Below are positions 981 through 46,136 of a stretch of 53,109 nucleotides of DNA, one piece after another. The notes beneath the pieces are model-generated. The model saw only the letters and a list, made by a program, of their open reading frames with translations, made no database searches and had not been told where the DNA came from. Each line of letters starts with the position of its first letter. Positions within the stretch are counted from its first letter, which is position 1. The DNA is from Corallococcus coralloides (GTDB lineage Bacteria > Myxococcota > Myxococcia > Myxococcales > Myxococcaceae), in contig JABFJY010000032.1 in assembly GCA_013116665.1 (NCBI GenBank), positions 1-53,109 on the forward strand, read 5' to 3'. The position numbers were made by a program, and so were the translations under genes.

Positions 981-1982
981 TCAGCGACCTGACGGAAGCT
1001 CGAGCACCGTCAGGAGCCCGGCCTCCGCGGCCGTCAAACGTGGCGCGGCATTCACCAGCGCGTTCGCGGTGGCCCGGTCGCCCGCCACTCCCCCCGGTAT
1101 CTCCAGCACCAGCTTCGGATCCGCGTCGATCTCGATGCGATCTCGTGGGTTGTCCGCCCCTACCGCGATGGTCAGCTCCAGGCGGACCCGCTCCTGCCCC
1201 TCCTCCAAACCCACCACGGACTGGAACATGCCCGCGACGCGGCCTTTCTTCACGACAAATGCGCCGCCGGTGATCTCCTCCTCGGCGAACACGGGAGTCA
1301 CTTCCTCCTCGAAGTCGTCACAATCCAGCCCCAGCCCCACCGCCGCCAGCGCCGCGGACTCCACCAGCCCCACGTGGCCCAGCTCCTCGCGGTCCACCAG
1401 GTCGAAGAACTCCTCCTCCGTCAGGCCCGCGCCCACCTTGCGCTGCAGGGCCTCACGGCGCGTGCGGGCATCCACCACGCGGCTGGCCGTCACCTTGCGC
1501 ACGGGGCCGCACACCTGACCGGCGGTGGCCACCAGGCGGTCCAGCACGAAGCCCGGGTTCACGCCCGTGCCCACGATGGCGACGCCCGCCTTCAGCGCGG
1601 CGCGCTCCAGCTTCTCCGCCAGCTCCGGGTACTTGAGGTGCGGGAACGCCAGCTCCTCGCAGGTGCTGGCCACCGGCAGGCCCAGCTTCAGCGCTTCCAG
1701 CAGCTGATCCATCACCTGGGCGAGCCGCGAGCTGGTGGCGTGCAGCACCACCACGCCCTTGCGGCGCCCCACGGCCTTCTCCAGCGAGTCCGCCACCTTG
1801 AAGCGCGGGCCCGCCAGCCCCAGCACGTCGCCCAGGGGACGACCCACCAGGGAGGGCTGCGGATCCACCGCGCCCATCAGCTCCACTTCGGGGGACGACA
1901 GGGCTGCCCTGGCAATCTCCTGCCCGATGAACCCCAGCCCCATCACCACCACCGGCACCGGCCCATCAGGGGCTCTAGCCAT
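981..1982 (-). CDS. Dihydrodipicolinate-reductase-like NAD(P)-binding oxidoreductase (DapB family)
   Basis: 333-aa ORF. N-terminal Rossmann motif VVVMGLGFIGQEIARA. The C-terminal region resembles the DapB C-terminal domain. Confidence 0.65.
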   Translation of the reverse strand: MARAPDGPVPVVVMGLGFIGQEIARAALSSPEVELMGAVDPQPSLVGRPLGDVLGLAGPRFKVADSLEKAVGRRKGVVVLHATSSRLAQVMDQLLEALKLGLPVASTCEELAFPHLKYPELAEKLERAALKAGVAIVGTGVNPGFVLDRLVATAGQVCGPVRKVTASRVVDARTRREALQRKVGAGLTEEEFFDLVDREELGHVGLVESAALAAVGLGLDCDDFEEEVTPVFAEEEITGGAFVVKKGRVAGMFQSVVGLEEGQERVRLELTIAVGADNPRDRIEIDADPKLVLEIPGGVAGDRATANALVNAAPRLTAAEAGLLTVLELPSGR

Positions 1983-2229
1983 CGGAGATTGCTCCCGAAT
2001 TCCAAGGGGTTACAGCCATTTACGTTGGGTAGGAGGCCACCATAGAACACGGCTCGACGGGCAGGCAAGCAGGACGTGGAATCCAGCGACCGCCTGTTTC
2101 AGGGAAACCTCAAGAATTCCGGCAGTTTGGCGGTACTGGAAAGCTTGGGGGGGCCTGTTTGCCCGCATGCGGACCGGCTATAAGACTCTGAGAAAAAACG
2201 CAGCCCACTCGCTCGGAGCGTATCAGCCC

Positions 2230-3351
2230 ATGGCCCGAATCCTCGTGGTGGACGACGACGTGCTCATCCTCGCGGCGCTGTCCCGGATCCTCCACGCGGA
2301 GGGTTACGAGGTCGTGACACACAGCGACCCGGTGGCGGCGGCGCGGGAGCAGGGGTTCGACGTCGTCCTCACGGACTTCATGATGCCGTACCTCAACGGC
2401 ATCGAGCTGTTGTCGGCGCTCCGGGAGAAGAACCCTCGCGCGGTGCGGCTGATGCTGACGGCGGCGGCGGACTTCAAGACGGCGTCGGAGGCGGTGAACC
2501 GGGGCGAGGTCTTCCGGTTGCTGGGCAAGCCGTGGGCGCTGAGCGAGCTGACCAGCAGCGTGCGGCAGGCCATCGAGCACCACCGGCTGGTGGCGGCCAA
2601 CGAGCGGCTGACACGCGAGGTCGCGGAGAAGAACGCGGAGCTCTTGTCCATCAACGAGGGGCTGGAGCGCCGGATCATCGAGCGCACCACGGGGCTCCTG
2701 GACGGACTCATCAGCGCGCTGGACTACCGCGACACGGAGACGCAGTGGCACTCGCGGCGCGTGTCGCTGTACGCGCGGCGGCTGGCGCTGGAGATCGGCC
2801 TCACCGGGCCGGCGCTGGACGTGGTGGAGCAGGGCGCGCTCCTGCACGACATCGGGAAGATTGGCGTGCGGGACTCCATCCTGCTCAAGCCCGGGCCGCT
2901 CACGCCGGACGAGTGGGTGGAGATGAAGCTGCACCCGGAGTTCGGCTACCGGATGCTGGCGAAGATGCCGTACCTGCACGAGGCGGCGCTCGTCGTCCTG
3001 CAGCACCAGGAGCGCTGGGACGGCAAGGGCTATCCGCTGGGGCTCCAGGGCGAGGAGATCGTCATCGGGGCGCGCATCTTCTGTCTCGTGGACACGCTGG
3101 ACGCCATCACCTCCGACCGGCCCTATCGCAAGGGGCGCCCCATGAGCGTGGCGCGCGACGAGGTCCGCCGCTGCGCGGGCACGCAGTTCGATCCGATGCT
3201 CGCGGAGGCGTTCCTCGGCCTGCCGGAGACGGAGTGGGCCCGCATCCGCCGTGAGGTGGAGATGATGGAGGAGTCGGAGAGCCACCGCTGGACGGGCGCG
3301 AAGCTCAACGCCCAGGGCGAGCCCGTGCCCGCGCGCGCCGCCGGGGCCTGA
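2230..3351 (+). CDS. Response regulator with receiver domain and HD-GYP domain (c-di-GMP phosphodiesterase type)
   Basis: ORF 1735..3351, trimmed to the ATG at 2230 (MARILVVDDDVLILAALSRIL). REC motifs DVVLTDFMMPYLNG. HD-GYP motifs HDIGK and DGKGYPLGL. Confidence 0.85.
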   Translation: MARILVVDDDVLILAALSRILHAEGYEVVTHSDPVAAAREQGFDVVLTDFMMPYLNGIELLSALREKNPRAVRLMLTAAADFKTASEAVNRGEVFRLLGKPWALSELTSSVRQAIEHHRLVAANERLTREVAEKNAELLSINEGLERRIIERTTGLLDGLISALDYRDTETQWHSRRVSLYARRLALEIGLTGPALDVVEQGALLHDIGKIGVRDSILLKPGPLTPDEWVEMKLHPEFGYRMLAKMPYLHEAALVVLQHQERWDGKGYPLGLQGEEIVIGARIFCLVDTLDAITSDRPYRKGRPMSVARDEVRRCAGTQFDPMLAEAFLGLPETEWARIRREVEMMEESESHRWTGAKLNAQGEPVPARAAGA

Positions 3352-3369
3352 CGCGCGAAGGGCCCCGCC

Positions 3370-5466
3370 TCAGGGGGCACGGGTGCCGACGACGACCTCG
3401 TCGATGATCGTGCCCTCCAGGAGCGCGTCCACGACGTCCATGCCTTGAATCACTTCACCGAAGGCCGTGTAGCGGCCATCCAGGTGCGGCTGCGGTGAGT
3501 GGGTGAAGAAGAACTGGCTGCCGCCGGTGTCCTTGCCCGACAGCGCCATCCCCACGGTGCCCCGCGCATACGGCCGGCGCGTCATCTCGCAGCGGATGGA
3601 GTAACCGGGCCCCCCCTCCCCGTCTCCGCGCGGGTCTCCGCCCTGCGCGACGAAGTCCGGCACCACGCGGTGGAAGGTGATGCCGCGGAAGTAGCCCTGC
3701 TTCGCGAGCGCCACCAGGTTGCCGCCCGTGAGCGGCGCGTCCGGATCCAACAGGACGGTGATGTCGCCCTTGCGCGTGCGCAGCATGAGCGTCGTGCCGG
3801 AGGGCGCTGCCGGCGGACGGTACGTCTCCGGAGGCAGCTCCACGCGGGCGGAGCGGACCGGCGTGCCCGTGAGCGTCGTGAGGGACTCGGCCGCGACCCG
3901 GCGCACGTTGGCGTGCGGATGGCCCAGCCACTCGCGCAGGCGCGGTTCCGCCGCCTTTCCCTGCAACGCGACGAGCGCGCCGGCCACCGCCTCCGCCAGG
4001 TCCGGCTCCTTGGGGACGCGGTCGGCCAGGGCCTGCACCGCGGTCAGGGCTTCGGCATCCTTCAGCTTGCCGGCGGCGGCCGCGGCCAGCCCCGCCACCA
4101 CCGCGTCCCCTCCTCCGATGAGCGCGCGAATGGGCGCCAGCGCTTCGGGCACGGGACGTTCGGAGAGGGCATCCAGCGCGGCGCCGCGCACGATGGGACT
4201 GACGTGGTCCAGGTAGGGCACCGCGAACGCAGCGCCGGTGGGCTGTCCCTTGAACTGCGCCACCTCGTGCAGGCCCAGCGCGAGCCATCGCGCTTCGGGG
4301 ACACGACCGTAGCCGCACTGGAGGACCTGCTCCAGCGCGCCCTGCTGCCGGTCCATGGCCGCCGCGATCCGGCAGTCCAGCCAGGCGAGGTCCGCGTGGG
4401 CTTCTTCGGACACGGCCGCGCGGTCTGCATCGGCCAGCGCCCCCCTCATGCGCGAAAACACCGGCCGGCCCTGGAGCGGAAGTCCCTGCTGCGCCACCGC
4501 CAGCAACACGTGGCCCTTCGCCGCCTTCCCCTCCGCCACCTGCTTCGCCAGGAGCGCCTGGCCTTCCAGTGCGATGAGCGGGGCACAGGGTGAGCCGGCC
4601 TCGCACTTCGCGGCGAGCTTCGCCAACGCACGCGCGGCCTCCGCCGACACGCGGGACGTGGTGTCGCCCATCATCAGGGTCAGCGCCACCGCGTCCCGCG
4701 GGCTGCCCACGTCGCCCAGGCCCTTCACGCAGAGGGCCATCACGTCCGGATGCCCGTTCGCCAGACAGGATTGGAGCGCATCCACTGCATCCGGCCGCTT
4801 CGACGCCGCCAGGAGGTACGCCCCGGCGAGGTTCACCTCGCTCCGCAATCGGGGCTTCAGCAGCGCGCGGATGGTCTCCAGGGGCACGTTCGCCACCGCC
4901 GCCGCGCCCGCCTTGCGCGCGGCCACGCCCAGCGCCGTCGCCGCGGCCTCGGACCAGGGACCACTGGCCGGAGACAGGCGGGCCGTCAGCACCTCCACCG
5001 CCCCCGGCGTGGCCAGCTTGCCCAGGGTCTCCAACAGCGTGATGCGCACCCAGCCGTCGGCTTCCGTGGCCTCGGCGTGCACCAGCGCTTGCGTGAGCGC
5101 TGTCCGTGCGTCCTCCGGCAGCGGCTCCCACGACTGCGCCAGCTCACCCGCCGCGAAGGCGGCCTCGTCGCGCACGGCCTTGTCCGGCGCCGTCAGCCCG
5201 GAGAGGACCGCGTCCAACGTCGCCACGTCCTGGATTCGCGCCAGGGACCGGAGGGCTCGCACGCGCACGGCCACTTGCGGCGCGGAGGTGGCGAGCCGCA
5301 CCAGCTCCCCGCCGCCCAGCGAGCGGCGGTCCTCCCAGTCCTGGATGCGCGCGAGGACCTGTGCGGGCGCTTCCTGGGGCGGAGGCACGTCGGGCGTCGG
5401 CACCGAGCGGACACAGGCGCTCACGAGGAGGACTCCGGCGGACACGGCGGCGGGCAGGCGAGCCAT
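3370..5466 (-). CDS. Lipoprotein with HEAT/PBS-lyase-like repeats fused to a C-terminal cyclophilin-type peptidyl-prolyl isomerase
   Basis: Long ORF 3370..7050, trimmed to the ATG at 5466 (MARLPAAVSAGVLLVSAC, lipobox). Repeated A/L-rich HEAT-like units. C-terminus FHRVVPDFVAQGGDP...GTVGMALSGKDTGGSQFFFT is a cyclophilin signature. Confidence 0.75.
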   Translation of the reverse strand: MARLPAAVSAGVLLVSACVRSVPTPDVPPPQEAPAQVLARIQDWEDRRSLGGGELVRLATSAPQVAVRVRALRSLARIQDVATLDAVLSGLTAPDKAVRDEAAFAAGELAQSWEPLPEDARTALTQALVHAEATEADGWVRITLLETLGKLATPGAVEVLTARLSPASGPWSEAAATALGVAARKAGAAAVANVPLETIRALLKPRLRSEVNLAGAYLLAASKRPDAVDALQSCLANGHPDVMALCVKGLGDVGSPRDAVALTLMMGDTTSRVSAEAARALAKLAAKCEAGSPCAPLIALEGQALLAKQVAEGKAAKGHVLLAVAQQGLPLQGRPVFSRMRGALADADRAAVSEEAHADLAWLDCRIAAAMDRQQGALEQVLQCGYGRVPEARWLALGLHEVAQFKGQPTGAAFAVPYLDHVSPIVRGAALDALSERPVPEALAPIRALIGGGDAVVAGLAAAAAGKLKDAEALTAVQALADRVPKEPDLAEAVAGALVALQGKAAEPRLREWLGHPHANVRRVAAESLTTLTGTPVRSARVELPPETYRPPAAPSGTTLMLRTRKGDITVLLDPDAPLTGGNLVALAKQGYFRGITFHRVVPDFVAQGGDPRGDGEGGPGYSIRCEMTRRPYARGTVGMALSGKDTGGSQFFFTHSPQPHLDGRYTAFGEVIQGMDVVDALLEGTIIDEVVVGTRAP

Positions 5467-14721: not shown

Positions 14722-14926
14722 GCAGGGCGCCTGCCCTCCGGGACAGCTTTCACGGCGTTGACTTTGGAGGATGCTGGGATTTCGACTCCGGAGTCTTGTG
14801 GGTCGGGGGGGCCGTTGCCCATGGGCAGCGCCAGTCAAATCCGTCTCATCAAACACATACAGTCTGTCTGGACTCTTATCCAAGGGCGTCCTGTCCGTGA
14901 GTGACACTCCGGGCTGGGACGACGTG

Positions 14927-17065
14927 ATGCGGGAGTTCCTCCTCGAGTCCCGCGAGCACGTGCAGAGCATCGAGGCGACGGTGCTGGAGCTGGAGGCGCA
15001 GCCGGGCGCTCAGCCATTGATGGCGCAGCTGTTCCGGGCCCTGCACACCGTGAAGGGCACCTGCGGCTTCCTGGGCTTCAGCCGCCTGGAGGCGCTGATG
15101 CACGCCGCCGAGGAGATGCTCTGCCTGGCGCGCGACCGGCGGCTGGTGCTGGACCGCGAGCGCGTGTCCACGCTGCTGGCGCTGGCGGACGCGGCGCGAG
15201 GGACGCTGGAGCACATCGAGGTGACGGGGCTGGAGCCCGCGGTGGACCACTCCGCGCTGCTTGCTCGCATGGCGGGCGCGGCGGCGGGCTCCGCGCCGCA
15301 GGAGGTGTCCGAGCCCCTGACGCCTCCGGGCGCCCTGCCCTGGCGCGGTGCCGCGACCGGGGTGGACTCCAAGCTGCGCGTGGACGTGGCGCTGCTGGAC
15401 CGGTTGATGAACCTGATGGGCGAGCTGGTGCTGGCGCGCAACCGCATCCTCCAGTGCGCGGCCTCGTCCACGCCGGGCGCGGACCTGCTCACCGCGTCGC
15501 AGCGGCTGGATGTCGTCACCACGCAGGTGCAGCAGGTGGTGATGAAGACGCGGCTCCAGCCGGTGGGCCAGGTGTGGAACCGCTTTCCCCGGCTGGTGCG
15601 CGAGCTGGCGCACGGGTGCGGCAAGCAGGTGCGGCTGCAGTTGCAGGGCGCGGACACGGAGCTGGACAAGACGCTGGTGGAGGCGCTGCATGATCCGCTC
15701 ACCCACCTCCTGCGCAACGCCGTGGACCACGGCGTGGAGACGCCCGAGCAGCGCCGCGCCGCGGGCAAGCCGCCCGTGGGGTGCCTGACGCTGAGCGCGT
15801 CGCATGAGGGCGGGCTCGTGCACCTGGGCATGTCCGACGACGGCGCGGGCATCGACGTGCAGCGGGTGCGGCAGGTCGCGGTGCAGCGGGGTCTGCTCAC
15901 GGCCGACCAGGCGGCGCGGATGCCGGACGCGGACGCGCGGATGCTCATCTTCATGCCGGGCTTCAGCACCGCGGAGCGCGTCACGTCGCTGTCCGGCCGG
16001 GGCGTGGGCATGGACGTGGTGCGCTCGCAGGTGGAGCGCATTGGCGGCACCGTGGAGGTGCACAGCCGGCCCGGTCAGGGCACGACGTTCACCCTGAAGA
16101 TTCCCCTCACGCTGGCCATCATCCCGGCGCTGCTCGTCACCTGCCGGGGAGACCGCTACGCGCTGCCGCAGGCCTCCCTGCGGGAGGTGGTGTTCCTGGA
16201 GCCGGCCCAGGCCCGCAAGGACATCACCCGCATCCAAGGAGCGTGCGTCCTGCGGCTGCGCGGAGAGCTGCTCCCGCTGGTGGTGCTCGCCGCCGAGCTG
16301 GGCGTGGGGCCGGCGCTGCCGGACCTGGACGAGGGCGCCACCGTCGTCGTGCTCCAGGCCGGTGAGCGCACCTTCGGGCTGTGGGTGGACGCCATCCACG
16401 ACACAGAGGAGATCGTCGTCAAGCCGCTCTGGAAGCACCTGAAGGGGCTGGCCTGCTACGCGGGGGCGACGGTGCTGGGCGACGGGCGCGTGGCGCTCAT
16501 CCTGGACGCCATGGGCCTGGGCCGCCGCCTGGGCACCGTCACCGAGGCGCAGGCCCAGGTCGTCATTCCAGAGGCCGCCGCGGAAGCACCGGCCCCGGAG
16601 GAGCCGCGCGAGCGAGTGCTGCTGTGCCGCAATGGCGCGGAGGGCCGCGTGGCCATTCCCCTGTCGCGCGTGGCCCGGCTGGAGGAGCTGCCCGCGTCGG
16701 ACGTGGAGCGGCTGAGCGGCGGCATGGAGATGGCGCGCTACCACGGGCAGCTGCTGCCGCTGGTGCGCGTGGCCTCCGTGCTGGAGGCGAGGCCCGGCGC
16801 GACGGAGCGGATCACTCAACACCTTCAGGTCGCGCTGGGTGAGTCGCTGTCCGTCGTCGTCACCCAGCACGCGGACACGCGCGTGGGGCTGGTGGTGGAC
16901 GCCATCCTCGACGTCGCGGAGGTGGAGCTCGCGCTCCAGCGCGAGACGCGCCGCCCGGGCGTGCTGGGCTCCATGGTGGTGCAGGCCCGGGCCACCGAGT
17001 TCCTGGACGTGGAGGGCACCGTGCGCGCCGTGCACCCGGAGCTGCTGACAGGCGGTGCGCCATGA
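14927..17065 (+). CDS. cheA: Chemotaxis histidine kinase CheA (HPt, dimerization, HATPase) with two C-terminal CheW-like domains and no receiver domain
   Basis: ORF 14771..17065, trimmed to the ATG at 14927 (MREFLLESREHVQSIE). HPt motif HTVKGTCGFLG. The HATPase region and two tandem CheW-like domains are present. Confidence 0.9.
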   Translation: MREFLLESREHVQSIEATVLELEAQPGAQPLMAQLFRALHTVKGTCGFLGFSRLEALMHAAEEMLCLARDRRLVLDRERVSTLLALADAARGTLEHIEVTGLEPAVDHSALLARMAGAAAGSAPQEVSEPLTPPGALPWRGAATGVDSKLRVDVALLDRLMNLMGELVLARNRILQCAASSTPGADLLTASQRLDVVTTQVQQVVMKTRLQPVGQVWNRFPRLVRELAHGCGKQVRLQLQGADTELDKTLVEALHDPLTHLLRNAVDHGVETPEQRRAAGKPPVGCLTLSASHEGGLVHLGMSDDGAGIDVQRVRQVAVQRGLLTADQAARMPDADARMLIFMPGFSTAERVTSLSGRGVGMDVVRSQVERIGGTVEVHSRPGQGTTFTLKIPLTLAIIPALLVTCRGDRYALPQASLREVVFLEPAQARKDITRIQGACVLRLRGELLPLVVLAAELGVGPALPDLDEGATVVVLQAGERTFGLWVDAIHDTEEIVVKPLWKHLKGLACYAGATVLGDGRVALILDAMGLGRRLGTVTEAQAQVVIPEAAAEAPAPEEPRERVLLCRNGAEGRVAIPLSRVARLEELPASDVERLSGGMEMARYHGQLLPLVRVASVLEARPGATERITQHLQVALGESLSVVVTQHADTRVGLVVDAILDVAEVELALQRETRRPGVLGSMVVQARATEFLDVEGTVRAVHPELLTGGAP

Positions 17066-17550
17066 GCGGCTCCCGCCAGCTGTGCTCGTTCCAGGTGGGT
17101 GACCACCTGTTCGGCCTGGACATCGAACGCGTGCAGGAGATTCTGCTCCCGCCCCCGCTCACGCGCGTCCCCGGTGCGCCTCCGGAGGTGGCGGGGCTGC
17201 TCAACCTGCGCGGGCAGATCGTCCCCTCCATCGACCTGCGCCGCCGCCTGGACCTCCCTGAGGGCACCGCCCCCGCGGACGCGCCCCACGTCGTGCTGCG
17301 CGGCGACGAGGGCGCGGTGAGCCTTCGCGTGGATGCCATTGGCGACATCCTCCCCTTCGAGCAGTCGGACCTGGCGCCGCTGCCGGACAACCTCCGCGGG
17401 CCGCTGCGCTCGCTGCTGTTGGGTGTCCATGCGCTGCCGGACCGGCTGCTGCTCGTGTTGTCCGCGGACGCGGTGGTGGACGGGCTCTCCCCAGCGTCCA
17501 GCGCCTCCGCCTCCCCTTCCTTCCCCGTGCTTCCCCAGGAGTCCCGCTGA
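17062..17550 (+). CDS. cheW: CheW coupling protein
   Basis: 162 aa. ATGA overlap with the cheA stop. CheW fold motifs [21 protein letters not shown]...[14 protein letters not shown]. Confidence 0.9.
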
Positions 17551-37198: not shown

Positions 37199-37319
37199 GT
37201 GGGGTAGTCATAGACCCCGATCGGGTTTGGACAGACACCCCCAAATCTCACAACACGTCTGTCTTCAGGTTTTCAACCTGATAGATCGCCCTTTCCTCTC
37301 ACTGCCCCAGGAAGGTGCG

Positions 37320-39665
37320 ATGCGCCAACAAGCCACTCTGTCTCGGGTTTTGTTTTACGCATTAATCAGCGCTGTCATTTCTGTCACGGCCTGCGACACA
37401 GGTGGCGAACCGGAGCGGGAGACCGGCAACGTCCGGTTCGTCAGCGCGGTTCCCCAGGCGCTCGCGGGCGATGAGATCACCCGCGTGACCGTCACGCTGA
37501 CGGCGTCCGGCGTGCCTTCCGCCACCACCGTGCTCACGAAGGGCACGGAGGGCTGGAGCGGCACCATGTACCAGGTGCCCGCCGGCACCCAGCGCACCTT
37601 CACCGCTGAGGCCTTCGCCGCGGACGGCGCCCTGCGCTACCGGGGCGTGGCCTCGGATGTCACCATCACCGCGGGCGCCACCTCCATCGTGGCCATCACC
37701 CTCCAGGCGCTGGATGTCCCGGGCCCGTTCGACAACTCGGCCCCGTGCATCGACTCGCTCGTGGCGTCCGCGAGCGCCGTCCTCCCCGGGGGCACCCTCT
37801 CCCTCCAGGCCACCGCGCATGATCCGGACGCGTCCGACACCCTCACGTACGCCTGGACGGCGGCGGAGGGCACCTTCGGTTCGCCCACGCTCACGTCGAC
37901 GACCTGGACGGCCCCCGCGACCCCGGGCGTGTACGCGCTGACGCTGACGGTCACCGACTCGCGCGGCGCCACGGCGACCATCCGCATCGACATCACGGTC
38001 ATCTCCAAGGACGGCGGCACCACGGCCGGCACCGCGGAGGTGTCCGTCACGTTCAACATCTCCCCCGCCGTCACCCGCGTCACCGCGTCCCGGTCCCCCG
38101 TGCCCGTGGGCCAGAGCACCACCGTCACCGCGGACGTGACGGATCCGGACGGCGACGCGCTGACCTACCAGTGGGCCGCGTCCTGCGCGGGCACCTGGGC
38201 GGATGACACCTCCAACATCGCCTCCTTCACCCCGACCGCCGTGCCCGCTGGCGACAGTTGCGGCAACTGCTCGCTCACCGTCACCGTGAAGGACCCGAAG
38301 GGCGGACAGACGCAGGGCACCCTGCGCATCTGCGTGGGCGACGGCGCGAGCGCCAACGTCCCCCCGCGCATCGTCCTCGCGCACCAGAGCAGCGCGTCCG
38401 TGGTGGGCGACAACACCGTGACGTTCCGCGTCCTCGCGGAGGACGGCAACGGTGGCGCCCTCACCTTCAACTGGGCCTCGAGCACCGGCACGCTGGCGAC
38501 GCCCGTGTCCGGGTTCACCTCCAGCGAGGTCTCCTGGAAGGCCCCCACCTGCGCGCCCACGGGCGGGAACGCGACCGTCACCGCCACCGTCACCAACGCG
38601 CAGGGCTTCTCCGCGTCCCAGGCCTTCACCGTGGCGGTGCAGAACGCCCCCGCGTGCACGCCGCCCACGACGGTCGCGCGGTGGGACTTGACGGCCAGCC
38701 TGACGCAGCGCCGCTTTGGCGCGAGCCTCATCGCCCTGCCCTCCGGGAAGATCCTCGTCTTCGGCGGGTCGGTGACCTCCAACCCCATCCTGGGCACCGC
38801 GGAGCTCTACGATCCCGCGACGGCGACCTGGTCCGCGGCCGGAACCCTGGGCACCTCGCGCTACAACCCCGCGAGGACGCTGCTCCCCTCCGGCAAGGTC
38901 ATGGTCACGGGCGGCTTCGCGTCGTATCCGGCCACCACCCCGCTGCGCGCCGTGGAGTTCTATGATCCCGCGACCAACACCTGGACGGCCGGCCCGCAGA
39001 TGGCCTTCGCGCGCGGCGCCCACACCTCGACGCTGCTGCCCAACGGCAAGGTCCTGGTCATCGGCGGCGTCACCACGGGCGACAGCGTCAGCAACCGCTC
39101 CATCGAGCTCTACGACCCCGCCACGAACAACTGGGTGCCGGTGGCGAGCCCGACCTTTGCCCGGTCCAACCACCGTGCTGTGCTGCTGCCGTCGGGCAAG
39201 GTGCTCACCGTGGGCGGCAACCTGCCGTCGGAGCTCTACGATCCATCCAACAACACCTGGAGCACCGCCACCGGCCTGACGACGCGGACGTTCACCGACG
39301 CCTTCCTCCAGCCTTCCGGCAAGGTGGTCCTGGTGGACGGGACGCTGGTCGCGACGTACGACCCGGTGCTCAACGTCCAGGCCACGCTGGGACACTTCAC
39401 CTACGAGCGCTCCAATTCCTCCCTGGTCCAGCTGAACTCCGGGAAGCTGCTGCTCGCGGGTGGGAACTCCACGGTGGGCCTGACAACGGAGGTCTTCGAC
39501 CTGGCGACCGGCACGTCCACGTTCTCCACCAGCATGGCGTCCAACCGCGACCTCATGACCACCACCGTGCTGCCCAACGGCAAGGTGCTCTTCATCGGCG
39601 GCTATGACCGGGACACCCCCGGGAGCGTGAGCGCCGTGCTCGTCTACACGCCCGCGACGCCCTGA
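37320..39665 (+). CDS. Lipoprotein with Ig-like/PKD-like repeats and a C-terminal Kelch-repeat beta-propeller
   Basis: Trimmed to the ATG at 37320 (MRQQATLSRVLFYALISAVISVTAC, lipobox). The C-terminal repeats LPSGKVLV.GG...ELYDPATNTW are Kelch-like. Confidence 0.8.
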   Translation: MRQQATLSRVLFYALISAVISVTACDTGGEPERETGNVRFVSAVPQALAGDEITRVTVTLTASGVPSATTVLTKGTEGWSGTMYQVPAGTQRTFTAEAFAADGALRYRGVASDVTITAGATSIVAITLQALDVPGPFDNSAPCIDSLVASASAVLPGGTLSLQATAHDPDASDTLTYAWTAAEGTFGSPTLTSTTWTAPATPGVYALTLTVTDSRGATATIRIDITVISKDGGTTAGTAEVSVTFNISPAVTRVTASRSPVPVGQSTTVTADVTDPDGDALTYQWAASCAGTWADDTSNIASFTPTAVPAGDSCGNCSLTVTVKDPKGGQTQGTLRICVGDGASANVPPRIVLAHQSSASVVGDNTVTFRVLAEDGNGGALTFNWASSTGTLATPVSGFTSSEVSWKAPTCAPTGGNATVTATVTNAQGFSASQAFTVAVQNAPACTPPTTVARWDLTASLTQRRFGASLIALPSGKILVFGGSVTSNPILGTAELYDPATATWSAAGTLGTSRYNPARTLLPSGKVMVTGGFASYPATTPLRAVEFYDPATNTWTAGPQMAFARGAHTSTLLPNGKVLVIGGVTTGDSVSNRSIELYDPATNNWVPVASPTFARSNHRAVLLPSGKVLTVGGNLPSELYDPSNNTWSTATGLTTRTFTDAFLQPSGKVVLVDGTLVATYDPVLNVQATLGHFTYERSNSSLVQLNSGKLLLAGGNSTVGLTTEVFDLATGTSTFSTSMASNRDLMTTTVLPNGKVLFIGGYDRDTPGSVSAVLVYTPATP

Positions 39666-41518: not shown

Positions 41519-41611
41519 TCCGACGAAGACGTCGAATTCCGCCGGATTTCCGTCTTGCAGCGCGGTGCGTATTCTTCAGGAGTCCTGTTTCTCCAGAAGG
41601 AGCCGCCCGCG

Positions 41612-43207
41612 ATGACGCCCACGGAACGGACCATTGCCCGCCTTCCCGCCCACCTGCGCCGCTACGTGGTGAGCCAGGACTACGCGGCGTACACGCCCCG
41701 GGATCAGGCGGTGTGGCGGCACATCCTGGGGCAGCTGCGTGAGCACCTGAGCGACAAGGCGCACCCCGTCTACCTGGAGGGCCTGGAGGCCACGGGCATT
41801 GGCGCGGAGGCCATCCCCAGCCTGGACGAGATGAACGAGAAGCTGTCCAAGCTGGGCTGGGCCTGCGTGGCGGTGCGCGGCTTCATCCCGCCGGCCGTCT
41901 TCACGGAGCTACAGGCGCTGGGCGTGCTGGCCATCGCGGCGGACATCCGCACGCACGAGCACATCCAGTACACGCCCGCGCCGGACATCGTCCATGAGAG
42001 CGCGGGCCACGCGCCCATCATCGCCAACGCGCGGTATGCCCAATACCTCAAGGCCGTGGGGCTGGTGGGCTTCAAGGCCATCGCCAGCGTGGAGGACCAG
42101 GCCGTCTTCGAGGCCATCCGCAACCTCTCCGTGGTGAAGGAGGACCCCACCGCGACGGAAGAAGAGATCGCCCACGCCCAGGCCCGCCTGGAGGCCGCGA
42201 ACGCCAGCCACCGCTACATCAGCGAGAGCACCCGCGCGAGCCGCCTGTACTGGTGGACCGCGGAGTACGGGCTGATTGGCGACCTGAAGCACCCGCGCAT
42301 CTACGGCGCGGGCCTGCTGTCCAGCATCGGCGAGGCCCGGCACTGCCTGACGTCCGCCGTGCACAAGCTGCCTCTGGGCGTGGCGTGCGCGGACACGGAC
42401 TACGACATCACCCGCATGCAGCCGCAGCTCTTCGTGGCGCGCGACTTTGAACACCTCTTCGAAGTCCTGGCGGAGTTCGAGTCCACGCTCGCGTGGAAGC
42501 GCGGCGGGGACCACGGCCTGAACGAGGCGCTGCGCGCGCGCACGGTCAACCACCTGGTGCTCGCGGACGGCCGCGAGGTGACGGGCAAGGTGGTGGAGCT
42601 GCTGCCCGCCGCGAAGGACGTGGCCCCGGGACTGTCCACCGCGCTGGCCCGGCTGGAGGGCCCCATCCTCACGTCCGTGAACGGGCACGCCGTGGACAAG
42701 CCGTTCAGCGGCGCGGCGCTGGTCGCCTTTGGCCAGGGCACCCTGCCGGAGCGCGGGAGCTTCCAGCTCACGCTCGACAGCGGGCTGGTGCTGGAGGGCT
42801 TCGCGGTGGGCGGCGGCGAGGTGATTGCCCTGCGCGGCACGCTGGCCGGCCAGGAGCTGACGCTGCCGTCCATGGCGCGCCTGTACCTGACGGAGCGGCT
42901 GCCGTCCGTGGCGGGCGGCCCCGCCGACCCAGGCACGTGGGACGAGTGGTTCGGGGAGCTGGACGCCTTCACCGCGGGCGACGGCGAGGCCCAGGCGCGC
43001 GAGCGCAAGGCGCAGGCCCTGCCCCCGTCGCTGGCCGCCCTCTACACGGAGGTGCGCCGCATCCGCGAGGCGGGGCAGCTGGCCCCCGAGCGGCTGGAGC
43101 AGATCGCCCGGGCGAGCACGGACTTCCCGTCCGACTGGCTCCTGCGCGCCGAGGTCGCGGAGCTGCGCGGCGAGGTGCCCGCGCGGCGCGAGGCGGCGCA
43201 CGCGTAG
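41612..43207 (+). CDS. phhA: Phenylalanine-4-hydroxylase (biopterin-dependent aromatic amino-acid hydroxylase) with a ~250-aa C-terminal extension
   Basis: Trimmed to the ATG at 41612 with SD gaaggag. Iron-binding region PAPDIVHESAGHAPII and downstream conserved E. Total 531 aa versus ~270-300 for typical bacterial PAH. Confidence 0.85.
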   Translation: MTPTERTIARLPAHLRRYVVSQDYAAYTPRDQAVWRHILGQLREHLSDKAHPVYLEGLEATGIGAEAIPSLDEMNEKLSKLGWACVAVRGFIPPAVFTELQALGVLAIAADIRTHEHIQYTPAPDIVHESAGHAPIIANARYAQYLKAVGLVGFKAIASVEDQAVFEAIRNLSVVKEDPTATEEEIAHAQARLEAANASHRYISESTRASRLYWWTAEYGLIGDLKHPRIYGAGLLSSIGEARHCLTSAVHKLPLGVACADTDYDITRMQPQLFVARDFEHLFEVLAEFESTLAWKRGGDHGLNEALRARTVNHLVLADGREVTGKVVELLPAAKDVAPGLSTALARLEGPILTSVNGHAVDKPFSGAALVAFGQGTLPERGSFQLTLDSGLVLEGFAVGGGEVIALRGTLAGQELTLPSMARLYLTERLPSVAGGPADPGTWDEWFGELDAFTAGDGEAQARERKAQALPPSLAALYTEVRRIREAGQLAPERLEQIARASTDFPSDWLLRAEVAELRGEVPARREAAHA

Positions 43208-43243
43208 GGCTGTCGCTTCGAATCACGGACGGCGGATGCGAAA

Positions 43244-43279
43244 CGGCCCGGTCGACCTCCTCACGAGGTCGCCGGGCCG
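43244..43279. terminator. Imperfect GC-rich hairpin between the convergent phhA and LysM genes (ggcccggtcgacct...aggtcgccgggcc)
   Basis: Stem ~13 bp with one bulge, loop ~7 nt. Possible bidirectional terminator. Confidence 0.35.
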
Positions 43280-43312
43280 AAGCACTTCCGGGGAGCTGCT
43301 TCGCGACAGGGA

Positions 43313-44905
43313 CTACGCGTTGCGGCGCACCATGGCCACGTCGTAGTGGCGCTCCGTCACGTAGCCGTTCGCGGCCTTGCCGGGGCGGTACATGTTCCCG
43401 GTCTTGTCATCCACGTAGAAGCGGTTGTTCGGGTTCGTGTCCTTGCCCGTGCTGGCGTTCTTCGTGCCCGGGTCGTGGAACGTGTAGTAGGTGCGGCCCT
43501 TCTCGTCGACGCCGCGGCCCGTGATGGTCACGAAGTGGTCCGTGAGGCCGTCCGCGTTGTAGCTCGCGTCCTTGTGGCTCACGCCCACGACCACCGGCTT
43601 GCCGGCCTCCAGCTGCTTGTCGATGTAGTTGCGGCCCTCGGCGGCCTTCTTCGAGTCCACCTTCAACGCGCCGACGCCGTTCTCGCTGGTGCCCACCTGG
43701 ATGCGGCGGTCGGGGCCCAGCACGGTCGCGCCCGCGTCGCGCGACATGGCCGTCGCGGCCTTGAAGCACGCCGTGTCGCTCGCGGTGTAGCCGTGGCCGT
43801 TCTCGAACTGGCTGTAGTACGGCACCTTCACGTGCACCGCCGGCTTGTCCTTGGACGGGGCCACCTGCTCCGTGTTCGCGGGGGCCGCCTCCGTGGTGGG
43901 CTTGGACGTGTTCGTGCCCTGGCCTTCCGTGCGGCCCGGCTTCGAGTCGCCGCTCACGGACGGGGGGACCACGCCCGTGTTGGTGTTGGCCGGCTTCGTC
44001 GTGGCGCCCGACTTCTCCTGCTTCAGCATCGCGAGCGCGTCCTTCGCCTCCGACTTGAAGCGGTTGGCCACGCCCTTCTGCACGTCCTTGGAGCTGCCGG
44101 AGAAGTGCACCAGGGTGCCGTTGCCGTTGGTGCGGCCGCGCTCGGCGTAGATGTCCTTGATGAGCTGCTCGTCGCTCACCTTCGAGGGGTCGCGCCCGGC
44201 CAGCGCCTTCTTGAAGATGTCATCCGCCTTGCCCGGGCCGTGCTGCACGGAGGTGGACCAGGCCACGTCCCGCAGCGCCGCGGAGCGCTTGTCCAGGTCG
44301 ATGCCCGTCGCACTCTTGATGTTGGCGGCGCCCTTGTCGTAGTGCGTGGCCTTGATGTAGTCGTGCTGCGCCTTGTCGAAGCCCTTCGGGTCCTTCGCCG
44401 CCAGCTGCTTCCACGCGGCGGAGAACTGCGCGGAGCCCGGCTTGCTGCCCGACAGCGCCTGGTGGAACTCCGGGTGCGTCTTCTTCAGCGAGTTGACGAA
44501 CGACTGCGCGGACCCGTTCGCGGAGGCGAACTGGTAGGAGCCGTAGGACACGCCGCCCTTGTCACCCTTGCCCGTGGACACGGTGCCGGGGCCGCGCGCC
44601 TCGTACTTGCGGCTCAGCCCGCCCAGCTCCCCGCTGCTGGAGGACGTGTTCGTCGCGGGCGTCGTCGCCTTCGCGCCGTCGGTGGCCTGCGTGAAGCTGT
44701 CACCCGACGTCTTCGTCCCCGCGCTCGACTTCGTGGTGCCCTTCGTGTCGAAGCCGTCCTGCACCTTCAGCGTCTTGCCGGCCTGGATCTTGTTCGGATC
44801 CTTGATGTTGTTCGCCTTGGCCAGCGCGTCGACGGTCGTGTTGTAACGCTTCGCGAGCCCGGTAAGCGTGTCACCCGACTTGATGCGGATATTGGAGACG
44901 GTCAC
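43313..44905 (-). CDS. LysM-domain multi-domain protein, Lys/Thr/Ser-rich, with C-terminal Cys/His peptidase-like region. Putative cell-wall hydrolase/toxin.
   Basis: N-terminal Lys[42 protein letters not shown]. Long low-complexity S/T/G/K linkers. C-terminal block [22 protein letters not shown]...DHFVTITG. Confidence 0.7.
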
Positions 44906-44971
44906 GGAGAAGACCCCTCTATGTCAGGCCGCGAACAGACGCGCCGCGGACGTGCTTGGATTGCAGCGATT

Positions 44972-44991
44972 ATCGAAAGGCAATGCGATCA
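44972..44991. promoter_or_regulatory. Inverted repeat AATGCGA-N6-TCGCATT in the low-GC divergent promoter region between the LysM gene and the 45084 gene
   Basis: Perfect 7-bp arms seen directly in the sequence. Local GC is markedly lower than flanking DNA. Confidence 0.4.
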
Positions 44992-45083
44992 GTTTCGCAT
45001 TCCCAGTCACAATCCTGTGAAACCAGTGATTCCGGCAACTTCAGTTTCAACGGATCGATCCGCTGAGACTGGAGAAGCTGCCC

Positions 45084-46136
45084 ATGAGGACCAATCAGAT
45101 GTTCAGGATCCAACCGGATTTCAAAAGTGTGGCATTACTGTTTGCCATTTGCGTCACGAGCGCGGTCCCGGAGGCCTCGGCCCAGGGGCCCGAGGGACTC
45201 ACGGGGGTCTATTCGAACAAGGGCGGGACGCTGGCCATCGTCGAGGGCAGCAACGAGACGCTCGTGCACTTCTCCGGTTCGTTCCCGCAGGGTGAGAGCG
45301 CGGGCACGTGCGATTGCGCCCTGGTCGTCCAGAAGAAGACCGCCACGAATTGGTCACTTCAGCAGGCAGGAGAGCAGGACTCCTGGACGCTGCGCGTCAA
45401 CCCCAAGCAGTTCGTGCTGGAGTCGGGTCCGTCACCGTCCTGTTGCGGGGCCGGCTACCCGGGCAAGGACACCTTCGCCCGGAGCACGGCCAGGCCCCTG
45501 GGCATCTGCAAGGTGAAGGTGTCCAAGGCGGGCTTCCACGCGTCGGACGCGGCCAACACGCCGCGCAAGGCGTTCGTGGTGTCCGGCGACGCGGTGGAGG
45601 CCTACGTCGACCCGGTGGAGCCGGACTTCCTCGCCGCGCGATTCCAGGGGCCCCAGAAGGCCACGGCGGGGCTGCTCAAGCGCGAGGACCTGGACTGTGC
45701 GGCGGAGTCCGCGCCCAAGGCCGCCGTGAAGGCCCCCGTGGCCGCGGACAAGCTCCAGCCCTTCGCGGGGACGTGGGTGGAGCTGACGCGGCAGGGCAAG
45801 GGCTTCGTGGTGCTCAAGCCCTGCTCGGCCGCGACGCGCAGCTTCACCGTCAAGCCCGCGACGGGCGAGGTGGAGGTGCAGCTGGGTCAGGAGGCCACGA
45901 CGCTGAAGGTGACGTCCGTGGAGCCCGGCAAGGGCGCCGGGGCCTGGGTGCTGGGGCTCACGTCCGCGGACGGCAAGCCGGAGGCGCTCCAGTGGAAGAC
46001 GGCCGACGCCGCGAAGGGCACCGTGTCCGTGAACAGCCCGGACCTCTTCTCCCAGAGCCACGACTACGTGCGCCAGGAGAAGAAGTCCGCCTTCCCGTCC
46101 AAGCAGGAGACGGGGTGCGACGAGTACGAGCGCTAG
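45084..46136 (+). CDS. Secreted hypothetical protein (signal peptide, multiple Cys)
   Basis: 350-aa ORF. N-terminus FKSVALLFAICVTSAVPEASAQ. No recognised domain. The 3' end overlaps the MVP gene by 4 nt, convergently. Confidence 0.6.
   Translation: MRTNQMFRIQPDFKSVALLFAICVTSAVPEASAQGPEGLTGVYSNKGGTLAIVEGSNETLVHFSGSFPQGESAGTCDCALVVQKKTATNWSLQQAGEQDSWTLRVNPKQFVLESGPSPSCCGAGYPGKDTFARSTARPLGICKVKVSKAGFHASDAANTPRKAFVVSGDAVEAYVDPVEPDFLAARFQGPQKATAGLLKREDLDCAAESAPKAAVKAPVAADKLQPFAGTWVELTRQGKGFVVLKPCSAATRSFTVKPATGEVEVQLGQEATTLKVTSVEPGKGAGAWVLGLTSADGKPEALQWKTADAAKGTVSVNSPDLFSQSHDYVRQEKKSAFPSKQETGCDEYER

Follow-up and report, generated by a model that had tools for sequence, protein, structure and literature searches.

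Characterized relatives and the Corallococcus locus

VgrG3 of Vibrio cholerae, with its partner TsiV3/TsaB (PDB entries 4NOO and 4NSO), and BtaeB (Bfe7) of Bacteroides fragilis, with its immunity protein BtaiB (9JDD and 9JG8), are effectors of type VI secretion systems (T6SS). Homologues of their C-terminal domains are found side by side in a single predicted peptidoglycan hydrolase, PGH530, which is encoded in a 53,109-nucleotide stretch of Corallococcus coralloides DNA (contig JABFJY010000032.1, positions 1 to 53,109; this whole stretch is referred to below as the window). Its gene is divergent from that of a Cys-rich protein, N350. The reading favored here, with moderate confidence, is that PGH530 acts as a bacteriolytic effector, its three modules being joined by flexible linkers, that N350 is its periplasmic neutralizer, and that the pair has a role in killing other bacteria. 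The locus consists of the following elements.

43313..44905, minus strand: PGH530 gene, a single open reading frame for 530 amino acids (stop codon at 43313-43315), encoding a predicted leaderless tri-modular peptidoglycan hydrolase
44906..45083, between the two genes: shared divergent control region, 178 nt, 55% GC
45084..46136, plus strand: N350 gene, encoding an exported, Cys-rich, all-beta protein of 350 amino acids, a candidate periplasmic immunity protein or inhibitor

The likeness to the V. cholerae system comprises a full-length match to the Pfam family PF21277, the KYE...GD.GG motif, and a neighbor that bears a signal peptide. In contrast to VgrG3, PGH530 has neither a VgrG spike nor nearby T6SS genes, and it carries a LysM domain before the glycosidase and a second enzyme after it. 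Neither the sequence nor the fold of N350 is related to that of TsiV3, and the N350 gene is divergent, not downstream. With BtaeB, PGH530 has the C-terminal domain in common. BtaeB is a protein of 617 amino acids, the N-terminal 434 residues of which serve in T6SS loading with the adaptor BtapC (PMC13402684). This loading region has no counterpart in PGH530, and no BtaiB-like neighbor was detected.

Enzymes that cut the glycan and the peptide part of the wall are joined in one leaderless polypeptide, with a cognate immunity gene, in TseP of Aeromonas (amidase and lysozyme; PMC11893102) and in a bifunctional effector of Acinetobacter baumannii (PMC11796386). The domain families differ from those in PGH530, and both proteins are linked to T6SS genetically and experimentally, whereas PGH530 is not. 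The LysM-GH19 lysozyme C25GH19C of Corallococcus silvisoli comes from the same genus, has LysM at the N terminus ahead of a lysozyme-type domain, lacks a signal peptide, and is predicted to undergo non-classical secretion (PMC10875029). Its lysozyme domain is of the GH19 family and that of PGH530 of the VgrG3 C-terminal type (VgrG3C); C25GH19C also lacks a second enzyme, and no partner gene has been reported for it.

The predatory DD-endopeptidases of Bdellovibrio are PBP4-type enzymes exported by the Sec pathway, and self-protection is provided by the ankyrin-repeat protein Bd3460. That system resembles the present one in that a wall-degrading enzyme of a predator is encoded beside a dedicated self-protection protein; its components show no homology to PGH530 or N350. 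No published account of PGH530 was found. The Corallococcus locus is a plausible further case of the known bifunctional lysin/immunity type and not a new kind of system.

Domain architecture of PGH530

The PGH530 gene starts with a GTG codon preceded by the ribosome-binding site GAGGGG, and an in-frame upstream stop codon limits the open reading frame, making a longer N terminus impossible. The LysM domain begins only 6 residues past the initiator, at residue 7, which leaves no room for an N-terminal signal peptide, and none is present. All 24 of the 24 aligned PGH530 homologues likewise begin with LysM, and many proteins with a VgrG3C-like module also lack a recognizable signal peptide. The protein is divided as follows.

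44762..44887, minus strand: LysM peptidoglycan-binding domain, amino acids 7-48 (PF01476; E value, 4.2e-15; 55.8 bits against a cutoff of 20.9)
44627..44755, minus strand: linker 1, amino acids 51-93, rich in T, S, G, and K, assigned by composition and poorly conserved
44048..44626, minus strand: VgrG3-C-type lysozyme-like glycosidase, amino acids 94-286 (PF21277), with putative catalytic residues E102 and D115
43841..44047, minus strand: linker 2, amino acids 287-355, rich in T, P, K, S, and G, assigned by composition and poorly conserved
43316..43840, minus strand: papain-fold cysteine peptidase similar to the C-terminal domain of BtaeB (BtaeB-CTD), amino acids 356-530, with the triad C380/H457/D478

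The middle domain matches PF21277 (T6SS_VgrG3-like_C) over profile positions 1-182 of 183 with an E value of 1.6e-52 (178.6 bits against a cutoff of 27) and, among PDB sequences, the C-terminal domain of V. cholerae VgrG3 (4NOO/4NSO) with an E value of 1.3e-27. E102 and D115 align with the KYE and GD.GG positions of 4NSO and are kept in 98 of 100 relatives, the remaining two having gaps at these positions. From the offset of the 4NSO construct, we take them to be E827 and D842 of VgrG3.

Residues 356-501 match the “Peptidase C39-like domain-containing protein” of entries 9JDD/9JG8, that is, BtaeB (6e-22), and the C-terminal domain of PGH530 is a homologue of BtaeB-CTD in both sequence and fold. 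The next structural neighbors are generic clan-CA peptidases, including staphopain (score, 9.8), AvrRpt2/C70 (9.2), a C39-like peptidase (9.1), and the PCAT peptidase domains (7-9). NlpC/P60 reaches just 5.3, and neither it nor CHAP is the closest fold. Among 70 relatives of this domain, C380 is found in 67 and H457 and D478 in 69 each. By sequence, fold, and catalytic residues, PGH530 is a member of the PF21277 and BtaeB-CTD families. It is not a VgrG, an NlpC/P60 or CHAP protein, a Sec-secreted enzyme, or a prophage endolysin, and it does not reach the Pfam threshold for Peptidase_C39_2 (PF13529; 17.2 against 24 bits). Pfam finds LysM and PF21277 alone in the protein, with no VgrG (gp27/gp5-like) spike domains and no PAAR, Hcp, MIX, or adaptor domains.

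Within the genus Corallococcus, the domains are 82 to 96% identical, while the two segments rich in S, T, G, K, and P, taken as linkers, diverge quickly; linker 1 drops to 16 to 37% identity beyond the closest species. An earlier reading of this DNA, made from the sequence alone (the sequence-only reading), had described a LysM domain, a domain with the GSYQFAS motif, and a C-terminal YYSQ...C...DHF domain joined by S/T/G/K linkers, with a Cys/His peptidase module at the C terminus. That architecture is borne out, the peptidase module by its homology to BtaeB-CTD and by the retention of its Cys, His, and Asp residues. The “three non-LysM segments” of that reading are in fact two enzymatic domains and two disordered linkers. 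It had also considered that the protein might turn out to resemble spore-coat or structural proteins and to lack conserved catalytic residues. The NCBIfam matches to such housekeeping and spore proteins (DipM, SafA, MltD, YneA, and others) lie far under their cutoffs and are due to LysM alone, and the Cys/His/Asp residues are conserved in 67 to 69 of the 70 relatives, so a housekeeping or spore-coat identity was rejected.

The composition of PGH530 is Lys rich and Arg poor, as the sequence-only reading had noted (K, 10.2%; R, 4.2%; T, 9.4%; S, 8.7%), and its high pI of 9.6 suits attachment to anionic cell envelopes. The K/(K+R) ratio of 0.71 is the maximum in the window, where most genes range from 0.0 to 0.36 and the only gene with a comparable value is the divergent neighbor N350 (0.68). 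The GC content of third codon positions (GC3) is 0.98 and codon usage is native; since this GC3 value equals that of the adjacent genes, PGH530 is not a recent import. An exact-sequence lookup of the protein returned no record, and orthologues were used in its place. The top matches are from Corallococcus exiguus (93% identity) and C. coralloides (91%), and orthologues are 73 to 93% identical within Corallococcus and 50 to 69% identical in Cystobacter, Archangium, Pyxidicoccus, and Stigmatella.

N350 and its pairing with PGH530

The N terminus of N350 resembles a Sec signal peptide, with a hydrophobic core followed by the sequence ASA/QG, and the protein contains eight invariant or near-invariant Cys residues. 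It has no match in Pfam, NCBIfam, PHROG, or PDB sequences. The family consists of 26 clusters at 90% identity, all of them from Myxococcaceae or Archangiaceae. An AlphaFold2 model (pLDDT, 83.8) is all-beta and comprises three modules, and Foldseek searches with it returned weak matches to a lipocalin (Tp0751) and to SH3b-like domains. As these were the only fold matches and the sequence databases gave none, a relationship of N350 to immunity proteins already known, or to lysozyme inhibitors, was rejected. Assignment of single N350 modules to single toxin domains was likewise abandoned after hidden Markov models (HMMs) of the three modules found nothing beside loci that encode only the C-terminal domain or only VgrG3C.

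N350 adjoins a PGH530-type gene, in divergent orientation, in 20 of the 21 loci whose middle domain is of the VgrG3C type, across five genera. In a survey of 41 related loci taken from the genomes of GTDB species, N350 is immediately upstream in nine such loci from Corallococcus, three from Cystobacter, four from Archangium, two from Pyxidicoccus, and copy 1 of Myxococcus sp. RHSTA, the single exception being a second paralogue in that last genome. The remaining neighbors, namely, the genes for major vault protein (MVP), Biopterin_H, LysR, and SDR, are common to Corallococcus only and differ in the other genera. Because these neighbors change between genera, N350 and the hydrolase gene can be said to form a module.

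The pair has also been lost as a unit. In Corallococcus sp. RDP092CA (L043, 9879-10192), the equivalent of window position 46012 is joined directly to that of 43509. This single 2.5-kb deletion removed most of N350, hydrolase residues 1-465, and the promoter region shared by the two genes, of which only the 3' ends are left. The pair is dispensable, and both of its members were lost in one event. Hyalangium gracile (L048, 6001-6633) encodes a truncated N350 homologue of 210 amino acids with no adjacent hydrolase gene, perhaps as an orphan immunity gene and perhaps as a remnant. At the second hydrolase copy of Myxococcus sp. RHSTA-1-4, the place of N350 is taken by a divergent gene similar to those for extracytoplasmic function (ECF) sigma factors (L049, 5052-5879, minus strand) and a gene for a Ser/Thr kinase of 1,117 amino acids with tetratricopeptide (TPR) repeats (1687-5040, minus strand). 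The product of this divergent neighbor, 275 amino acids long, was tried as an N350 candidate and rejected, as its hhalign probability is 0.6% and it resembles an ECF-type sigma factor.

A leaderless wall hydrolase next to an exported, disulfide-rich partner follows the usual logic of toxin/immunity pairs that act in the periplasm, which suggests that N350 is probably a periplasmic immunity protein or inhibitor of the hydrolase. The sequence-only reading had pointed to an adjacent immunity gene as something to look for, and N350 is a conserved neighboring candidate.

Related proteins with other architectures

In Myxococcus, the relative of PGH530 is a protein of 536 to 565 amino acids that shares LysM and the C-terminal peptidase, with 55 to 61% identity in the peptidase domain (L003, 10001-11623, in Myxococcus xanthus; L024-L032 and L041). 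Its middle domain of ~230 amino acids (GYRN...NSESA.V.GTSEGNR...GGHTDPGN) is unrelated to VgrG3C and finds no match in Pfam or among PDB sequences. By the gene order EttA (MXAN_0559), VanY, M48, porin, and LysM protein, the copy in strain DK1622 is MXAN_0563; another LysM gene that is induced by prey, MXAN_0418, was rejected as the M. xanthus homologue, as its neighbors differ from those in L003. MXAN_0563, annotated as “LysM,” is upregulated on Sinorhizobium (S. meliloti) prey, with log2 fold changes of 1.53 early and 0.55 late, and belongs to no developmental expression cluster (Perez et al. 2022, PMC9548883 and its supplement). Prey induction supports a predatory rather than a developmental role for the family, MXAN_0563 being a paralogous architecture from another genus.

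When the C-terminal domain was used as a HMMER query against the full library, 1,207 representative proteins were returned (E value of ≤1e-3), in which the BtaeB-like domain is found nearly always at the extreme C terminus, behind variable N-terminal regions. It is fused to WXG100-like N termini in metagenome-assembled genomes (MAGs) of Actinomycetota (L036-L038) and forms the end of a 2,073-residue Rhs/YD-repeat protein in a Bacteroidetes MAG (L044, 4103-10324; 36% identity over query residues 416-521). It is also combined with a 3D-domain in a Vulcanimicrobiota MAG, with PG_binding_1 or LysM alone, and in two Myxococcota MAGs it directly follows a signal peptide. The VgrG3C module, in turn, is fused to WXG100-like N termini (P0079 and P0091) and to CHAP, M23, and PG_binding_1 domains, and in M. 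landrumensis a VgrG3C protein is encoded beside Rhs and IS66 genes. The fusions of each module, separately, to WXG100-like N termini suggest toxins of type VII secretion systems that carry the same warheads. The VgrG3C segment matches internal regions of two very large phage protein families, phrog_26249 (1.1e-43) and phrog_34863 (2e-42), which may be virion-associated lysins, and the LysM segment of PGH530 matches endolysin PHROGs.

Proposed mode of action and alternative explanations

In the proposed mechanism, LysM would dock PGH530 on peptidoglycan, the VgrG3-type lysozyme-like domain would cut the glycan strands, and the BtaeB-type papain-fold peptidase would cut the peptide part, as either an amidase or an endopeptidase; attack on both polymers of the sacculus should then lyse the target cell quickly. 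Without a Sec or Tat signal, PGH530 would be kept from the wall of its producer until a non-classical exit, and N350, as a Sec-exported, disulfide-rich beta-barrel protein, would neutralize in the producer periplasm any hydrolase that comes from siblings or re-enters. The likely biological role would be that Corallococcus and its myxobacterial relatives kill or lyse other bacteria, as predators or competitors. The sequence-only reading had likened the protein to secreted cell-wall-lytic effectors and polymorphic toxins, and this view gains support from the 178.6-bit match to PF21277, the conserved Cys/His/Asp residues, and the adjacent candidate immunity gene.

Several observations weigh against the proposal. 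N350 resembles neither known immunity proteins, such as TsiV3 or BtaiB, nor lysozyme inhibitors in sequence or fold, and divergent orientation is unusual among effector-immunity pairs. The second paralogue in Myxococcus sp. RHSTA-1-4 is the lone VgrG3C-type locus without N350, and the Myxococcus-type loci have neither N350 nor any other universally conserved neighbor. No genes of T6SS, Tad/Kil systems, or type III secretion systems (T3SS) are found in the 53-kb window, and no secretion-system genes are found in the ±10-kb flanks of the loci of C. exercitus, Cystobacter fuscus, and M. xanthus (L001-L003). Finally, two soil-metagenome contigs, both Acidobacteria-like, encode leaderless LysM-VgrG3C proteins of ~293 amino acids directly downstream of alanine racemase (L046, 6344-7228; L047, 5048-5926); as these short proteins are found among housekeeping genes in a conserved neighborhood, the VgrG3C glycosidase is not exclusively a weapon.

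Both catalytic domains have T6SS effectors as their closest characterized relatives (VgrG3 in V. cholerae and BtaeB in B. fragilis), and a leaderless toxin with a signal-peptide-bearing neighbor is the classic layout of periplasm-acting T6SS effector-immunity pairs. PGH530 might accordingly be T6SS cargo that is fired into neighboring kin or competitor cells, with N350 as its cognate periplasmic immunity protein; the N350 fragment of Hyalangium resembles an orphan immunity gene. We consider this unlikely. VgrG (gp27/gp5), PAAR, Hcp, MIX, and adaptor components are missing from the protein, from the window, and from the ±10-kb surroundings of the Corallococcus, Cystobacter, and Myxococcus loci (vgrG, hcp, PAAR, and adaptor genes in L001-L003), and the T6SS or outer-membrane-exchange delivery markers that the sequence-only reading had in mind were not found. 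The similarity to BtaeB is limited to the toxin domain (residues 435-591), and the catalytic domains are conserved between species, not polymorphic. A role as T6SS cargo is possible, but gene linkage lends it no support, because no T6SS genes are nearby and BtaeB is shared in its toxin domain without the loading region. In addition, T6SS mutants of M. xanthus still kill prey, so that this system is reported to be unnecessary for prey killing (PMC8460266).

Rather improbable is an endogenous role, in which PGH530 would be an autolysin that acts on the wall of its own cell in division, rod-to-spore conversion, germination, or developmental lysis and N350 would be its periplasmic regulator. Myxococcaceae and Archangiaceae conserve the family as a single-copy core gene, its codon usage is native, short LysM-VgrG3C homologues follow alanine racemase in two independent contigs, and LysM hydrolases are common among housekeeping and spore proteins (DipM, LytE, and SafA, for instance), although PGH530 matches these NCBIfam and PDB entries via LysM only. 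However, a protein without a signal peptide has no obvious access to the periplasm of its own cell, and the clean deletion of the gene pair in one Corallococcus strain shows that it is dispensable. Prey induces the M. xanthus relative, which lies outside the developmental clusters, and WXG100, Rhs, and T6SS proteins also carry both enzymatic modules as C-terminal toxin domains.

A further reading concerns the delivery route. Contact-dependent lysis by M. xanthus involves local degradation of peptidoglycan by an as-yet unidentified hydrolase and has been linked to the Kil/T3SS* machinery (PMC8460266; PMC12428579); a 2025 review still names no effector for this mode of killing (PMC12428579). The family of leaderless LysM hydrolases, with PGH530 in Corallococcus, Cystobacter, and Archangium and MXAN_0563 in Myxococcus, might conceivably be the wall hydrolase effector delivered at prey contact via Kil (Tad-like) and the needle-less T3SS*, with N350 shielding the sacculus of the predator. 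This is a speculation to which we give a low probability. It is consistent with the lack of a leader, as in T3SS-type substrates, with the two predicted wall-cutting activities, with the prey-induced M. xanthus relative, with the lack of T6SS linkage, and with the reported dispensability of T6SS for prey killing.

Descent from a phage endolysin or virion-associated lysin, domesticated or remnant and freed by holin-like lysis, is very improbable: phages typically encode lysins that lack a leader and combine several domains with a wall-binding module, and the VgrG3C and LysM segments match PHROGs at the domain level only, but the flanking genes are not phage genes (MVP, Biopterin_H, LysR, and SDR), synteny is stable across the genus with a GC3 value of 0.98, and N350 has no PHROG match.

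The divergent control region

The region between PGH530 and N350 shows 84% mean identity across 10 Corallococcus species. The GC content of positions 44950-45150 is 47 to 51%. The low-GC promoter of the sequence-only reading is thus real, at 55% GC for the intergenic region against ~70% for the 53-kb window, but such a drop is ordinary in divergent promoter regions. The following elements were recognized.

44969..44974, minus strand: -10-like box GATAAT of the hydrolase gene, a recurrent motif
44991..44996, minus strand: -35-like box GAAACT, 16 nt upstream of the -10-like box
44982..45001, strand not applicable: perfect inverted repeat AATGCGA-N6-TCGCATT, which straddles the -35-like box

Of 21 upstream sequences (the window and 20 loci, from five genera), 19 have a GAT[AG]AT box 53 to 79 nt ahead of the hydrolase start codon, and the composite motif G[AC]AAC[TAC]-N16/17-GAT[AG]AT recurs across genera. 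The GAAC motif of the -35-like box is reminiscent of ECF-type promoters, so a sigma factor of this type might be responsible. A scan of positions 43200-45200 with the sigma-70 consensus found no promoter, and Rfam returned nothing meaningful over the region (RT-15, 17.8 bits against a gathering score of 82). An octamer, TCAGTTTC (GAAACTGA on the hydrolase strand), is present twice in the intergenic region, at 44989-44996 and 45041-45048, 52 nt apart; both copies are invariant in ten Corallococcus species, and one of them contains the -35-like box.

The inverted repeat had earlier been proposed as an operator, in a feature whose end at position 44991 splits the repeat in half. The perfect repeat does exist, but it is not beyond chance: some perfect 7-nt inverted repeat with a 0- to 10-nt spacer is found in 8.6% of the shuffles of the intergenic region, and the window contains 102 repeats of this class. 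Among ten Corallococcus sequences, the repeat is perfect in three (the window, L005, and L009), retains a 6+6 core in L006 and L008, has one mutated arm in L004 and L007 (C. coralloides and C. exercitus), and is degenerate in both arms in three species (L010-L012) whose promoter boxes are intact. In other genera, different small palindromes are found around the same -35-like box. No second copy with two or fewer mismatches occurs in the window and none occurs elsewhere in 47 loci, and a regulon-wide operator was rejected. The position over the -35-like box would be sensible for a repressor, and an operator is possible, but the idea is weak because 8.6% of the shuffles match it and few Corallococcus sequences keep the repeat perfect.

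Other genes in the window

Beside N350 is a gene for a full-length MVP homologue (46133-48400, minus strand), with Vault repeats and the MVP shoulder domain, which is 93 to 98% identical across Corallococcus. Vault proteins are unusual in bacteria. Past MVP, there are two overlapping open reading frames, for DUF6310 (4e-56; 48946-49875, plus strand) and DUF5953 (7e-113; 49770-50633, plus strand), which are probably the “toxin island” of the sequence-only reading; a DUF5953 gene is also found near MVP in C. exercitus (L001). The adjacency of the hydrolase locus to MVP and this island is present in Corallococcus as that reading stated, but because it is seen only within this genus, it is probably incidental.

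On the other side, the gene at 41555-43207 (plus strand) is convergent with the hydrolase gene and conserved in Corallococcus. It encodes a protein of 550 amino acids in which Biopterin_H (aromatic amino acid hydroxylase) covers only the N-terminal part, followed by a long C-terminal extension. A Thr-rich (14.8%) protein of 812 amino acids, encoded at 37227-39665 (plus strand), combines PKD/Big_9 domains with a Kelch beta-propeller, is Arg poor like the hydrolase, and may be secreted. Farther away are a chemosensory cluster (14771-22762) with a CheA-like kinase, CheW, a globin-coupled methyl-accepting chemotaxis protein, and CheB, into which an ABC1 kinase gene is inserted, and a Fic-domain gene (24661-25398). 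The window also carries metabolic genes.

Significance

The BtaeB-type toxin domain is a widely shuffled module, found in T6SS, Rhs, WXG100, LysM, and 3D-domain contexts in ~1,200 representative proteins, that has no dedicated Pfam model. If PGH530 is merely one more of the many secreted lysins of myxobacteria, its assignment is a useful annotation and not a surprising one. As candidate lysin inhibitors or immunity proteins, N350 and its relatives would make up a family not described before. Myxobacteria lyse their prey on contact and make local holes in the prey wall, and PGH530 is a concrete and genetically simple candidate for an enzyme that does so.

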